Shown here: in pieces, positions 52,297 to 57,499 of the stretch
How the letters are laid out: the number at the start of each line of letters is the position of its first letter
How positions within the stretch are numbered: position 1 is the stretch's first letter
Assembly (NCBI GenBank): GCA_049968255.1
Contig: JBMFRB010000001.1
Location: forward strand, 333,395-397,394
Direction of reading: 5' to 3'
DNA length: 64,000 bases
From: Candidatus Sumerlaeaceae bacterium
Lineage (GTDB): Bacteria > Sumerlaeota > Sumerlaeia > Sumerlaeales > Sumerlaeaceae
Position numbers and translations under genes: made by a program
The notes under the pieces: model-generated
What the model saw: only the letters and a program-made list of their open reading frames with translations
What the model was told of the DNA's origin: nothing
Databases searched by the model: none

Positions 52297-54825
52297 TTAC
52301 CTCTCGCTCTGCTCGGATGACTGGAGCTGCTCGTGGGCGCTGAGACGAATGTCGTAAGCACTGCGCAGCGGCACATCGTTGTTGCGTGTGGCCTCAGGGG
52401 TGCGACTTGGCGACGAACCTCCTGCAGCAGGAGCCGCATCCGGCATGATGTCAGGTTTTTCGATGACTTTTTTCCATACAGAGCGGCCAGCATCGGGTGC
52501 TGGCCCACGATAAATGCGCTGGTCGGGATCCTCTACGAGGTTCGGCTGCTCGGGCGTGGGTGCTGCGACGTGCTGCGGTGATGGCAACATCCTCGCCACG
52601 GAAGTTGACGAGCTGGTGGCGGGGTCTGTTCCCAACGGGATTTCGATCTCCCGTCGGTTCGAGACAAGCTTGAGCCTCGGCGTAGGGGCCGCGGGCACAA
52701 GGCCCGATGGCTCGGGTGTCGCTTGAGCCTGCGCGATGACTCCTTCGCCAACAAGCAAGCTCTCTTGGTACTGCTCGGGGGGCCCGAAAACGAGCTGCAC
52801 CGGCTGCGAGGGATCGAGCGACTCATAGGGGCGCGGCGTTTGGTCGACGACAACGCCACTGCCGTGCGCTTCAAAGCTGAGACCCAAGGCGGCGAGCCGC
52901 TCGTGTGCTTCGCGCATTGTCAGACCACGCAAATTCGGCATGCAGCCTGGCGCAACGTCCTCATCCTCGGGCGGCCGCTCGACGATGGCAGGCACAGCAC
53001 GCTGGTCGCGCATTTCTTCCAACGCAACGTCCACACTCTTCGGCGGTGGCTGATCCTGCATCTTGCTTGGAGGGATGCGAAGAATCTTGAGAGCCTCTTG
53101 GGCAATTTCCTTGAAGACTGGCGCCGCCACCTGTCCGCCGTAATAGACGCCTCCGCGCGGATTATCTATCCAGATGTAGATACAAATTTCGGGATCTTCA
53201 AGCGGGGCCACCCCACAAAACGACCCGATGTAGTTGCCGCGGGAGTAGCGCTTTGTTTCTGGATCAAGCTTGATGGTCGTGCCGGTCTTGCCACCAACGC
53301 GGTAGTTGGGGACGGCTGCAGCCTTGCCAGTGCCCTCGCGAACCACAGCTTCCATCAGTTCAAGCATCCGCTTTGTGGTGGTGGGAGTGCACACGCGACG
53401 AACCTTCTCCGGCTCAACCTGTTGGACAAGCTCGCCCCGATAGTTGCGTAGCTCTTTCACCACATGTGGCTTCATATAGATGCCATTGTTGGCAATTGCC
53501 GCGGCCGCAGCCACAACCTGGATAGCCGTGACCTGGAGCTCATAGCCGTAAGCCAGAGAGGCAACGCTCTGGGCGGTCCAATCCTTCACATGGCGCAGCC
53601 GTCCAGGAGCCTCTCCAGGCAGATCAATACCGGTTTTTTCCCCAAACCCAAAATCTACGAGATGCTTGTAAAAGCGCGCGGGCTGAAGACGCATGGTGGC
53701 CAGTTTCGCGGCAGCGACGTTACTGGATTGCGCAAAGGCAGTCACGATGGGGACCGCCCCCATCGCATGCGAATCAACAACCGTGCGACCGGCCACCGTC
53801 CAGCGACCGCCTGAGCAGTCGACGATCTCCTGAAATGAGCGAATTTTGTCTTCCTCGATAAGCGAGGTGTACGTGAAAATCTTCATCACCGAGCCGGGCT
53901 CGATGGCATCGCTGATCGCACGATTGCGCATAGCCAGCGGAGAGGCATGCTGGACGTCGCTGAGGCTGAAGCTTGGCACAGAAGCCATTGCAAGAATTTC
54001 GCCAGTCTTGACTGCATAGACCACTGCGACGCCCGCGTCGGCCGTGCAGGCAAGGACCTGTTTTCGCAAGGCTTTCTCTGTGACATCCTGGATGTCACGA
54101 TCTATCGTTAATACCACACTGTTGCCGTACGTGGAGGCCAACACGGCGGGATCCAAGGGTTCCAGCGGCATACCGGTCGCGGTTCTCAGCGCGCGGTCAA
54201 CACCGAACTTCCCGCGTAGCTGCTCGTTATATGATCCCTCCGCTCCGGCCACGCCTGTGTTGTCGCCAGTGTCATCGAGCATCGTGTAGCCAATGATGTG
54301 CGCGGCAAGCTCGCCGAACGGGTAACTACGTTTGTTTTCTTCCTGGATGTAGAAGGCGTTACGTGCCACGGCTGGCGGTTTCTTTTTGTCGCCCTTGTAC
54401 TTCTCACGGTACATCTGGGCTAGCACCATGACCCGGTCCATTTGCTCACGCGTCGCGCGCCGCACAATGATTTGGTCACCGCGTGTGTGGGTAAGGCGAC
54501 GATAGATCGTGTCGAAATCCATCCCGAGTTCACGTGCAAGATCGGCGGCCAGATCGCGCTTCACTTCGTCGGCGATAAGCGAAGGCGAGACGTAGATGGA
54601 AGGAACCATCTCCGTGACGGCAAGCTCGCGCGAGGACCGATCGTAGATCTTTCCGCGCGACGGGATTTTCTTGATCGTATACTCGTGGCGAGCGCGAGCG
54701 TGACGCCAGTAATGCTCGGCTTTGACAAACTGAAGTTCATGAAGCCGGCGGACAATCATGAGGGCAGCCAGCACCATGACCACTTGGAGAGACGTGAGTA
54801 TCCATTGTGGTCTGTTCTCGTTCAC
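52297..54825 (-). CDS. ftsI: Class B penicillin-binding protein FtsI with PASTA domain and long Pro-rich tail
   Basis: RGKIYDR, SVMK (SxxK), SSN (SxN), KTGT, PASTA-like MPNLRGLTMREA; dcw context. Confidence 0.93.
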   Translation of the reverse strand: MNENRPQWILTSLQVVMVLAALMIVRRLHELQFVKAEHYWRHARARHEYTIKKIPSRGKIYDRSSRELAVTEMVPSIYVSPSLIADEVKRDLAADLARELGMDFDTIYRRLTHTRGDQIIVRRATREQMDRVMVLAQMYREKYKGDKKKPPAVARNAFYIQEENKRSYPFGELAAHIIGYTMLDDTGDNTGVAGAEGSYNEQLRGKFGVDRALRTATGMPLEPLDPAVLASTYGNSVVLTIDRDIQDVTEKALRKQVLACTADAGVAVVYAVKTGEILAMASVPSFSLSDVQHASPLAMRNRAISDAIEPGSVMKIFTYTSLIEEDKIRSFQEIVDCSGGRWTVAGRTVVDSHAMGAVPIVTAFAQSSNVAAAKLATMRLQPARFYKHLVDFGFGEKTGIDLPGEAPGRLRHVKDWTAQSVASLAYGYELQVTAIQVVAAAAAIANNGIYMKPHVVKELRNYRGELVQQVEPEKVRRVCTPTTTKRMLELMEAVVREGTGKAAAVPNYRVGGKTGTTIKLDPETKRYSRGNYIGSFCGVAPLEDPEICIYIWIDNPRGGVYYGGQVAAPVFKEIAQEALKILRIPPSKMQDQPPPKSVDVALEEMRDQRAVPAIVERPPEDEDVAPGCMPNLRGLTMREAHERLAALGLSFEAHGSGVVVDQTPRPYESLDPSQPVQLVFGPPEQYQESLLVGEGVIAQAQATPEPSGLVPAAPTPRLKLVSNRREIEIPLGTDPATSSSTSVARMLPSPQHVAAPTPEQPNLVEDPDQRIYRGPAPDAGRSVWKKVIEKPDIMPDAAPAAGGSSPSRTPEATRNNDVPLRSAYDIRLSAHEQLQSSEQSER

Positions 54826-54875
54826 GACGTCCGCACCCTAGCCTGATATTCTTTACACGTTGTTTGACAGTGCAA

Positions 54876-54904
54876 GCCTCCGTGCCACATGTGGTCACGG
54901 AGGC
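54876..54904. promoter_or_regulatory. Hairpin/palindrome upstream of ftsI
   Basis: GCCTCCGTG / CACGGAGGC arms enclosing the perfect palindrome CCACATGTGG. Confidence 0.45.
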
Positions 54905-54964
54905 CTGTCGTTTTCTATTGACTATACGCCAGTGGCTCAATCTATTGCTGGCACAAAGATGAAA

Positions 54965-55218
54965 AGCCAGATCGGCGGACGCATTCGCCGGCACTGGGCG
55001 GGAAACCCGTGCGCGAATTCATCGTCGCAGGAACAGGGACTTGAAGGGCGAAAGCGCATTTTCGCCCTTCAATTGTTCTCAACTGTCGCTTGTCAGCCTC
55101 TTCCACTTCGGCGGCAACCGGAACTGTCGCAGGAGCTTCTCCGGGAACGGATTTCCAACGGTCAACTTTTGTCAGCAGGTGCATCCACGGGAACTGTCGC
55201 ACTGCCGCCGATCTGGCT
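54965..55218. ncRNA. Candidate structured ncRNA (or MITE) of unknown class
   Basis: Perfect 14-bp terminal inverted repeat, two internal hairpins and repeated 12-mers in a 458-bp gap between ftsL and ftsI. Confidence 0.4.
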
Positions 55219-55283
55219 AAACTTTTGTTTCGTCTCGTGCTCCACAACCTCCATGGCTTTTTTTATGCAAGCCGCGCCACACG

Positions 55284-55826
55284 TCACGGTTTTTCAGGAG
55301 TGATTGCGGCTTGAACTTTGGTCACTACAGCAAGTTGCTCAAGCATCTCTTGCCACAACATTAGGCTGTTTCCCGCCGAGTTGCTACCCGCAGAGGCCAG
55401 ATGGTTATTCATGGCCACGCCGCGATACTTATCGCGAAGGGCCTCAGGAACCATGACGGTCTCCCGTCGAAGGGGGTTAACCTCGACCAATCCTAGCTCG
55501 CGGCGAGCGCGATCGCGCAACACGGGTTGCTCTGTGATCAATCGCTTCTGCACCTCGAGATGCTCCTTCTCGCGCAACAATGTCTCTGCTCGGCGCTGCA
55601 AAGCTAGCCGCTCGAGCTCGTACTCACGGGCGTAAAAGGAAATCCCCACATTAGCAGCAGCCAATATGACGCCGCACAAAAACAACCCGAGCACAGTGAG
55701 AAAATAGCCCACTGTGATCCGCCGATCTACGCGTCGCACTGTATTGGCGATATACTTTGCCACTTTCGTTTTCCGCCTTTCACTAACCGCAACTTTTTCT
55801 GGGCGAGAGCTTGCCGCTTCCCGCAC
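55284..55826 (-). CDS. ftsL: Cell division protein FtsL-like
   Basis: Basic N-terminus, single TM, coiled coil, ARRELGL motif; position after rsmH. Confidence 0.7.
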   Translation of the reverse strand: MREAASSRPEKVAVSERRKTKVAKYIANTVRRVDRRITVGYFLTVLGLFLCGVILAAANVGISFYAREYELERLALQRRAETLLREKEHLEVQKRLITEQPVLRDRARRELGLVEVNPLRRETVMVPEALRDKYRGVAMNNHLASAGSNSAGNSLMLWQEMLEQLAVVTKVQAAITPEKP

Positions 55827-57312: not shown

Positions 57313-57362
57313 GATTTACCAAATTTCCACAAAATCTGCCGTGATTTACCAATATAATCCAA
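57303..57362 (-). promoter_or_regulatory. Putative MraZ-binding direct-repeat array
   Basis: Minus strand TTGGATTATA TTGGTAAATC ACGGCAGATT TTGTGGAAAT TTGGTAAATC GTGGGAGACG: (T)GG every ~10 bp, ending at the mraZ start. Confidence 0.7.
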
Positions 57363-57499
57363 AGCCGTGCAAGGGAAAAAGAGTCTCAGGCAGCACTTTT
57401 TACGAGGAAGGATAAGTCGAATTTTGACAATATATTAGAGCGCTCTTTTGGTGGGCAATCGATCAGAGAGAGAAAAAATTGAGGGAAATGACGCGGTAG

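Follow-up and report, generated by a model that had tools for sequence, protein, structure and literature searches.

The stretch of DNA examined in this report, referred to below as the window, comprises 64,000 nucleotides of the genome of Candidatus Sumerlaeaceae bacterium (assembly GCA_049968255.1, contig JBMFRB010000001.1, positions 333,395 to 397,394 of the forward strand), and its minus strand carries a division and cell wall (dcw) operon with the gene order mraZ-rsmH-ftsL-ftsI. The junction between ftsL and ftsI is tight in most bacteria; here the two genes are separated by a spacer of 458 bp (54826-55283), within which lies an element of 254 nt (54965-55218) that is a real, conserved and previously undescribed RNA matching no known family. 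It is very probable that a conserved, structured RNA of the operon sense exists in this spacer, and the long-range helix that closes it, which we refer to as P1, forms in RNA of the operon-sense strand, to judge from its covariation and from the pattern of its wobble pairs. An initial annotation of the window had described the element as a multi-stem non-coding RNA (ncRNA), serving either as a cis-regulator of the downstream genes or as a separate plus-strand RNA, or else as a mobile insertion. In what follows, G000 denotes the window's own genome (3.1 Mb in 31 contigs, 95.75% complete), other labels of this form denote the genomes of relatives, and the host family is the family to which the window's genome belongs.

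In the window, positions 55218-55205 pair with 54978-54965 as a perfect 14-nt inverted repeat with 226 nt between the arms. The covariation of P1 was assessed in an alignment of 20 elements from seven families, in which 12 core pairs make up 240 cells. All but six of these cells are paired (234, or 97.5%), and four of the six come from a single misaligned row, that of G026. Nine of the 12 pairs are changed on both sides, with 41 compensatory cells in the alignment, and the length of the helix ranges from 12 to 16 bp. In 500 shuffles the observed values were never reached, and with the partner shifted by 1-3 columns pairing fell to 17-42%. P1 thus covaries across 20 genomes, which is what the initial annotation had anticipated of aligned spacers if they encode a structured RNA.

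The helix can be assigned to the operon-sense (minus-strand) RNA because its wobble cells are G·U pairs on that RNA and A·C mismatches on the plus strand. Over the 14 columns from -3 to +10, the cells that depart from Watson-Crick pairing number 12 G·U against 3 A·C in the operon sense (6 against 1 in the 12-bp core). As the genomes are related, two pairs of them (G013 with G032, G010 with G011) being near-identical, these cells do not count as independent events; they are spread over differing positions in no fewer than six lineages. The helix of G065 extends over 22 bp with 3 G·U pairs in the operon sense and over 14 bp in the antisense. A 266-nt stretch folds better than all 200 of its shuffles on both strands, with z-scores of -3.71 (minus) and -3.41 (plus) and nearly equal energies (-106.9 kcal/mol plus vs -106.7 kcal/mol minus). 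In the larger versions of the element, whole-region energies favor the G-rich antisense strand, a composition effect to which we attach no evidential weight.

These results bear directly on the suggestion that the whole 254-nt element, closed by its inverted repeat, is a stand-alone ncRNA of the plus strand. The two strands fold equally well, and a -35-like box lies upstream of such an RNA, but on the plus strand the variable cells of P1 become the A·C mismatches counted above, and a conserved plus-strand terminator (hairpin B, discussed below) would stand in the middle of the transcript. The repeated motif would then read CRGGA, yet CsrA (PF02599) was not found in G000 (95.75% complete) by a search to which control genomes responded. 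We therefore reject this reading as very improbable. A sponge of the CsrB/RsmZ type was likewise discarded as a class, since its GGA-containing reading belongs to the strand on which P1 mispairs and no CsrA was found in G000.

The element was also traced among relatives. When 41 of them were searched at the DNA level, the spacer turned up in G002 (82% identity over 363 nt), G001 and G006, and the block best kept in G006 includes the 5' arm of P1 together with the first repeat. When loci were anchored on the N-terminus of FtsI, an ftsI match was obtained in 11 of the 13 host-family genomes (the other two are 66% and 89% complete), and all 11 have an ftsL-ftsI spacer of 378-641 nt with the same architecture. 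A survey of the class, confined to genomes that are at least 90% complete, gave an FtsI match in 43 of 44 genomes and returned 30 loci, and 20 loci from outside the family were examined; locus L065 (G022) was left out, as its FtsI match began at residue 54. Nine of these 20 genomes, from six other families, have a perfect long-range inverted repeat of 11-16 bp upstream of ftsI, and these repeats, too, start with ..CCAG and end with CTGG... A strict pattern of the arms, run over 73 genomes of the class, matched the dcw locus only within the host family, and its reversed-pattern control hit 2 genomes. The remaining strict matches (five in four genomes of other families and one in G005) sit on different contigs or have the look of coding sequence, and were set aside.

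A miniature inverted-repeat transposable element (MITE), or another mobile insertion with 14-bp terminal inverted repeats and a target duplication of AAA, had been among the original proposals, and the perfect terminal repeat with AAA at both ends of the element is what such an insertion would leave. We reject it as having next to no probability. The only full-length match to the element in the 3.1-Mb G000 genome is the element itself, so that the copy check gave a single copy, and the strict arm pattern matched no other loci of the host family save the unrelated one in G005. Twenty genomes, from seven families, carry the element at one and the same site, syntenic across a class, with arms that covary instead of being copied and with flanks that differ between genomes. 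The position is also informative with regard to transcription: P1 starts 10 nt past the ftsL stop codon in G006 and ends 25 nt ahead of the ftsI start codon in G036. The element thus adjoins ftsL in one genome and ftsI in another, with no room for separate promoters on both sides, and must therefore be co-transcribed with the operon.

The interior of P1 varies from 196 to 445 nt across genomes and is a pyrimidine-rich array, built of short same-sense repeats in 5-15 copies, together with one or two hairpins. Their strand bias is pronounced: in the operon sense there are 79 occurrences of TCCCG, 37 of TCCTG and 136 of CCCG, as compared with 2, 4 and 10 for the respective reverse complements (CGGGA, CAGGA and CGGG), whereas base composition, by an estimate from base frequencies, predicts a bias of only about two-fold. 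The repeats follow the consensus G-Y-U-C-C-Y-G-Y-U, and 75% of 114 copies have a G at position -2. Their spacing is most often 6-7 nt or 12-14 nt, and a 10-11-nt phasing is not seen. In the window, the repeat region 55083..55204 contains three GCGACAGTT words in addition to its motif copies. All of the relatives' loci inspected have a hairpin immediately 5' of the P1 3' arm, with differing sequences; in the window this is hairpin A, which shows compensatory changes in G001. The larger versions of the element (G003, G007, G008, G010 and G011) have in common a further internal hairpin bounded by GACGCC ... GGTACTGTTCCCG, the stem sequence of which varies by genome and which is absent from the window's genus. 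The strand preference of hairpin A and of this internal hairpin gave mixed, uninformative signals (judged in part by eye).

Short arrays also occur elsewhere in the phylum, as a separate observation. Other Sumerlaeota genomes hold many short arrays of an ATCCYGT type, some of them in facing pairs that amount to palindromes like repetitive extragenic palindromic (REP) sequences. Examples were seen in G027 (e.g. C181:9749-9801 and C130:10312-10382), in many contigs of G054, and in G013 (C11:1384-1444 and 2024-2063), and one such locus consists of two inverted tandem heptamer arrays ~600 bp apart. Matches to the pattern exceeded those to a reversed-pattern control in each of the three genomes (61 vs 25 in G027, 23 vs 5 in G054 and 21 vs 2 in G013). 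A tandem run of TCCTGT hexamers was also noted near a contig end in the host-family member G003 (C12:294-322), outside the dcw locus.

An array of this kind, held within a terminal helix, invites comparison with stable RNAs that are released from a longer transcript. P1 might be a processing stem (for RNase III, for example), and the excised array might then act as a sponge that titrates an RNA-binding protein or G-rich RNAs in trans. Stable processed RNAs typically have their two ends joined, 5' to 3', by a near-perfect helix such as this one of 12-16 bp, and the interior is a same-sense array of 5-15 short motifs at a spacing of 6-7 nt. UCCC motifs are known as pairing modules of small RNAs (sRNAs) such as RsaE and LhrC. 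The proposed protein partners, which we name with no more expectation than the sponge itself, are KH-type KhpA/KhpB, Hfq, S1 or Rho; G000 encodes Rho, two KhpA-type KH proteins and Hfq, each of them a candidate only. CsrA, the classic partner of sponges, is missing from the G000 search results, as noted above, and the motif copy number is low in the window's genus. Nor did G000 yield a second non-coding array locus: the richest segment of the genome, with 7 copies, is antisense to an HslU-like coding gene. Taken together, these points make a released sponge possible but unlikely.

Within the host family, the element appears to carry a second layer that runs in the opposite direction. Hairpin B is present in all 11 host-family genomes, and 6 of its 11 stem pairs covary. 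Its tail has 5-7 T in 10 nt on the plus strand and 1-4 on the operon strand in 11/11 genomes; its fold is more stable on the plus strand in 8/11 genomes, in the operon sense in 1 and equal in 2; and in G003, G007, G005 and G011 an interior A·C of the operon-sense hairpin is a G·U on the plus strand. A consensus scan called a plus-strand terminator at 55041-55072. Judged by these sequence features, hairpin B is an intrinsic (Rho-independent) terminator on the plus strand only, and it is specific to the host family. The G·U bias of hairpin B is opposite to that of P1, which argues against a general mutational skew as the source of either. On the other side of the P1 3' arm, the hexamer TTGACT stands invariant, 39-47 nt outside P1, in 9 of the 11 host-family genomes. 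This distance suits a transcript that starts shortly ahead of the P1 3' arm's complement, and the box is a candidate promoter element. The module from hairpin B to P1 measures 124-139 nt in 11/11 host-family genomes, and the predicted 134-nt plus-strand RNA of the window folds at -55.3 kcal/mol (z -4.07). We put the chance that an antisense sRNA of ~130 nt is expressed in the host family at about even. The initial annotation's plus-strand RNA from the TTGACT box is thus plausible in a shortened form that ends at hairpin B; its extension over the 254-nt element did not hold up, and its TCTATT makes a weak -10 box.

Between ftsI and the TTGACT box stands hairpin C. Both G002 and G001 have kept it, with an altered loop, and on the plus strand a T-rich run follows its stem directly before TTGACT.

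If such an antisense RNA is made, one might ask whether it is the main product of the locus in the host family, the operon-sense helix being only its target site. The plus-strand terminator kept in 11/11 host-family genomes, the TTGACT box kept in 9/11 at a fixed distance, the nearly constant length of the hairpin B-to-P1 module and the folding of the predicted sRNA would all agree with this. Set against them are the weak -10 box and, above all, the distribution of the parts: P1 and the array are kept in six other families, in the loci of which neither hairpin B (with its A-tract) nor the TTGACT box was seen, the exception being an AGTCAA in G040. Since P1 and the array occur there in the absence of the antisense signals, the operon-sense RNA is the older and wider feature, and we consider it distinctly unlikely that the antisense RNA is the main product.

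There remain the readings that would dispense with a functional RNA. A 147-aa frame on the plus strand and a 101-aa frame on the minus strand overlap the spacer, and the motifs are repeated, as they would be in a DNA-level site such as a cruciform or an array resembling MraZ boxes; that the element is a small protein gene or a DNA site is nonetheless scarcely credible. G002 too has the 147-aa frame open, but in G001 and G006 it is interrupted or shifted. Pfam gave no match for either ORF, the frames are not conserved, and the changes in the arms are compensatory and not synonymous. A conserved sequence resembling a Shine-Dalgarno (SD) site, AAAGGAG, does occur 25-45 nt 5' of P1 at the same place in the host-family loci L030-L039, with no conserved ORF behind it; across the host-family loci, no conserved start codon or ORF was found after this box, which may be a ribosome stand-by or stabilizer site, or a partner of the CUCC-type repeats. 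We reject the coding reading, and the spacer is, as first described, without a credible gene; the overlapping ORFs, considered at that time as possible conserved proteins, are not conserved. With respect to a DNA site, the opposite G·U asymmetries of P1 and hairpin B point to RNA and not DNA, and the spacing of the motifs lacks a 10-11-bp phasing. Two direct TGGTAAATC words just 5' of the mraZ start (57313-57400, minus strand) are candidate MraZ boxes; a link between these words and the spacer array was considered and rejected, as the two are unlike in sequence.

Comparisons with known RNA families were uniformly negative. A scan of window positions 54700-55400 against Rfam 15 with E up to 10 gave four chance-level matches, none of them within 54965-55218, and in a scan of the loci of 13 relatives with E up to 1 the best result was one miRNA match (E 0.91) and no family. 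A multi-stem ncRNA without a known family, as the initial annotation had it, is therefore what the conservation and the Rfam results support. Searches of the literature on the dcw cluster and on Sumerlaeota/BRC1 gave no report of an RNA in the ftsL-ftsI spacer. Assignment to the riboswitch class was also tried and abandoned: the interior is built of repeats and variable in length, and the alignment has only 5 invariant columns, none of which form a core outside P1.

What the operon-sense RNA does can be approached from its position and parts. Directly 3' of P1, a GC-rich helix, at least 5 of 10 nt are T in 14 of the 20 genomes, and the 5' flank is A-rich. We infer, with roughly even confidence, that the element works inside the operon as an attenuator or a processing module, with control over ftsI and the mur genes; of the alternatives offered by the initial annotation, cis-regulation of these genes fits best, and the wobble pattern places it on the operon-sense strand. 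P1 together with the U-tract might act as a conditional stop or processing point for a fraction of the transcripts before they reach ftsI, and in this way P1 would set the share of transcription, or of intact mRNA, that goes on past mraZ-rsmH-ftsL to reach ftsI and the mur genes. The sensor or regulatory surface would be the repeat array: a factor bound along it, such as an oligomeric RNA-binding protein, might join the distant arms or keep them apart, or alternatively Rho might load on the C-rich array. In the host family, the putative antisense sRNA, running from the TTGACT box to hairpin B, would have complementarity to both hairpin A and the 3' arm of P1; because it covers this arm, it could compete with the 5' arm, block P1 or trigger cleavage. 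More tentatively still, and with considerably less confidence than in attenuation or processing as such, one can imagine a new kind of operon-embedded RNA, in which a long-range helix and an expandable GYUCCYG array wrap or recruit an oligomeric factor (KhpA/B, Rho or another protein) that decides whether the arms pair.

In addition to the relatedness of the genomes behind the wobble counts, several observations weigh against the regulatory RNA proposed here. P1 was not found in 11 of the 31 genomes examined, in which relaxed rules gave chance-level helices only (at most 11.5 of 14); in 6 of these 11, TCCYG is 3- to 10-fold above its complement upstream of ftsI. The "loop" of P1, at 200-430 nt, is atypical for an intrinsic terminator (the usual loop has 3-8 nt), and the U-tract is weak in the GC-richer G065, G026, G054 and G058 (2-4 T of 10). 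On the antisense side, TCTATT or TCTAAT stands at 17-18 nt in only 4 of the 9 genomes that have TTGACT, a weak -10, and a consensus scan of the antisense promoter accepted 0 sigma-70 sites. The array of G000 is short, with 5 TCCYG in 254 nt (0.5 expected) and a C/G ratio of 0.82; 25 segments of the G000 genome reach 5 copies, the genome mean being 1.97 per kb per strand, and matches to an extended motif, GYTCCCGYTGA with 1 mismatch, are not enriched within the window (5 vs 5.7 expected). A Rho utilization (rut) site is a stretch of ~80 nt that is rich in C, poor in G and unstructured; G000 encodes Rho, and the C/G ratio of the host-family arrays is 1.1-1.7 in 7/11 genomes and 0.73-0.97 in G000 and its three closest relatives. 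The G000 array alone is not a convincing rut site or platform. As the enrichment is modest in G000 alone, the signal of the array rests on its conservation across genomes.

Several known systems share one or another property with the operon-sense element. A structured RNA inside the dcw cluster exists in Actinobacteria as the mraW RNA motif (Rfam RF01746), which differs from the present element in lying upstream of mraW/rsmH, in belonging to another phylum and in being much smaller, and which gave no match in the Rfam scans. In the TRAP-controlled trp leader of Bacillus and in the CsrB/RsmZ sponges, arrays of short same-sense motifs, only a few nucleotides from one another, bind an oligomeric protein, with the outcome of a terminator choice or of titration. 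The motif here is GYUCCYG, and not (G/U)AG or GGA, the helix closes the whole array and no CsrA was found in G000. The sRNAs RsaE/RoxS and LhrC resemble the element in having multiple unpaired, C-rich UCCC motifs; they are trans-acting Firmicutes sRNAs of ~100 nt with 2-3 loop motifs that pair with ribosome-binding sites, whereas the element has its 5-15 copies in the spacer of an operon, and no pairing with a target was found for it. Countertranscript attenuation in pT181 and pIP501, in which the nascent sense RNA folds into one helix or another under the control of a cis-antisense RNA, and the rRNA operons, in which a long-range helix encloses a large RNA and serves as the RNase III processing stem, are partial parallels, but they serve plasmid replication control and rRNA maturation. 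To our knowledge, neither countertranscript attenuation nor an RNase III flanking stem is known in a dcw operon.

The nearest precedent, by analogy, would seem to be UpsM and StsR of Rhodobacter sphaeroides. UpsM derives from the dcw cluster's 5' untranslated region by partial termination, and undergoes RNase E cleavage triggered by an sRNA (PMC8266604). The likeness lies in an ncRNA within a dcw transcript with which a second small RNA, StsR, pairs, altering its structure and the level of the downstream dcw mRNA (PMC8266604). The differences are that UpsM is upstream of the whole cluster and the present element is between ftsL and ftsI; that we found no sequence or Rfam relation between them, and that neither a repeat array nor a long-range closing helix is reported for UpsM; and that StsR is trans-encoded, whereas the candidate sRNA here is cis-antisense.

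The perfect inverted repeat of 14 nt, hairpins A and B, the AAA flanks and the TTGACT-N17-TCTATT arrangement were all found where the initial annotation had placed them, and their coordinates are collected in Table 1 with those of the neighboring genes. The ftsL-like ORF has no match in Pfam, and its name rests on position only. The FtsI protein has a C-terminal PASTA domain at residues 629-681, followed by a low-complexity tail of ~160 aa that is rich in Pro, Ala and Ser. A search for sequencing runs that contain the stretch gave two DNA runs, from one hot-spring study and labelled hot springs metagenome, and no RNA run.

Table 1. Coordinates in the window of the element, its parts and the adjoining dcw genes, in operon order
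Feature	Coordinates	Strand	Basis or remark
mraZ	57312-56806	-	ORF list; Pfam MraZ
rsmH	56809-55844	-	ORF list; Pfam MraW (methylase)
ftsL-like ORF, 180 aa, upstream of element	55284..55826	-	named by position between rsmH and the penicillin-binding protein (PBP) gene
SD-like GGAGG, ~30 nt 5' of P1 in operon sense	55248..55252	-	host-family consensus AAAGGAG
P1 5' arm (operon-sense RNA), A-rich flank before arm	55205..55218	-	inverted-repeat search and covariation
Repeat region, GYUCCYG-type motifs on minus strand	55083..55204	-	copies at 55188-55194, 55142-55148, 55130-55136, 55118-55124
Hairpin B, 13-bp GC-rich stem	55041..55072	+	perfect arms 55041-55053 / 55060-55072; T-rich tail 55073-55082
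Two more GYUCCYG copies, between hairpins A and B	55028..55040 (55034-40, 55028-34)	-	plus-strand reading CAGGAAC, CAGGGAC
Hairpin A (ATTCGC/GCGAAT, GCAC/GTGC, loop GGGAAACCC)	54983..55018	-	immediately 5' of P1 3' arm
P1 3' arm (operon-sense RNA)	54965..54978	-	inverted-repeat search and covariation
Predicted antisense sRNA, ~130 nt	54953..55086	+	start inferred from TTGACT box; end at hairpin B and T tail
U-rich tract directly 3' of P1 (operon sense)	54949..54964	-	7 T in first 10 nt
TTGACT (54918-54923) and TCTATT (54941-54946), N17 spacing	54918..54946	+	candidate promoter, antisense sRNA
Hairpin C (GCCTCCGTG / CACGGAGGC), 9-bp GC-rich, between TTGACT box and ftsI	54875..54906	.	loop changed within genus
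ftsI (PBP gene), downstream of element	52297..54825	-	Pfam Transpeptidase, PBP_dimer and PASTA

The control of the amounts of early versus late dcw products is little understood beyond a few model species, and an RNA domain that is found class-wide at the ftsL-ftsI junction of an uncultivated phylum provides a testable handle on the post-transcriptional control of division. The element defines a new RNA family and is a candidate for Rfam, as well as a candidate platform with which to find an RNA-binding protein in Sumerlaeota. If the proposed wrapping or recruitment of an oligomeric factor by the array is true, the dosage of ftsI and the mur genes relative to mraZ-rsmH-ftsL would be tied to how much of a global RNA-binding protein is free, and one family would have gained a dedicated antisense sRNA as a further input. 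In that family, the overlap of a sense helix with an antisense terminator would represent a compact natural case of sense/antisense RNA control.

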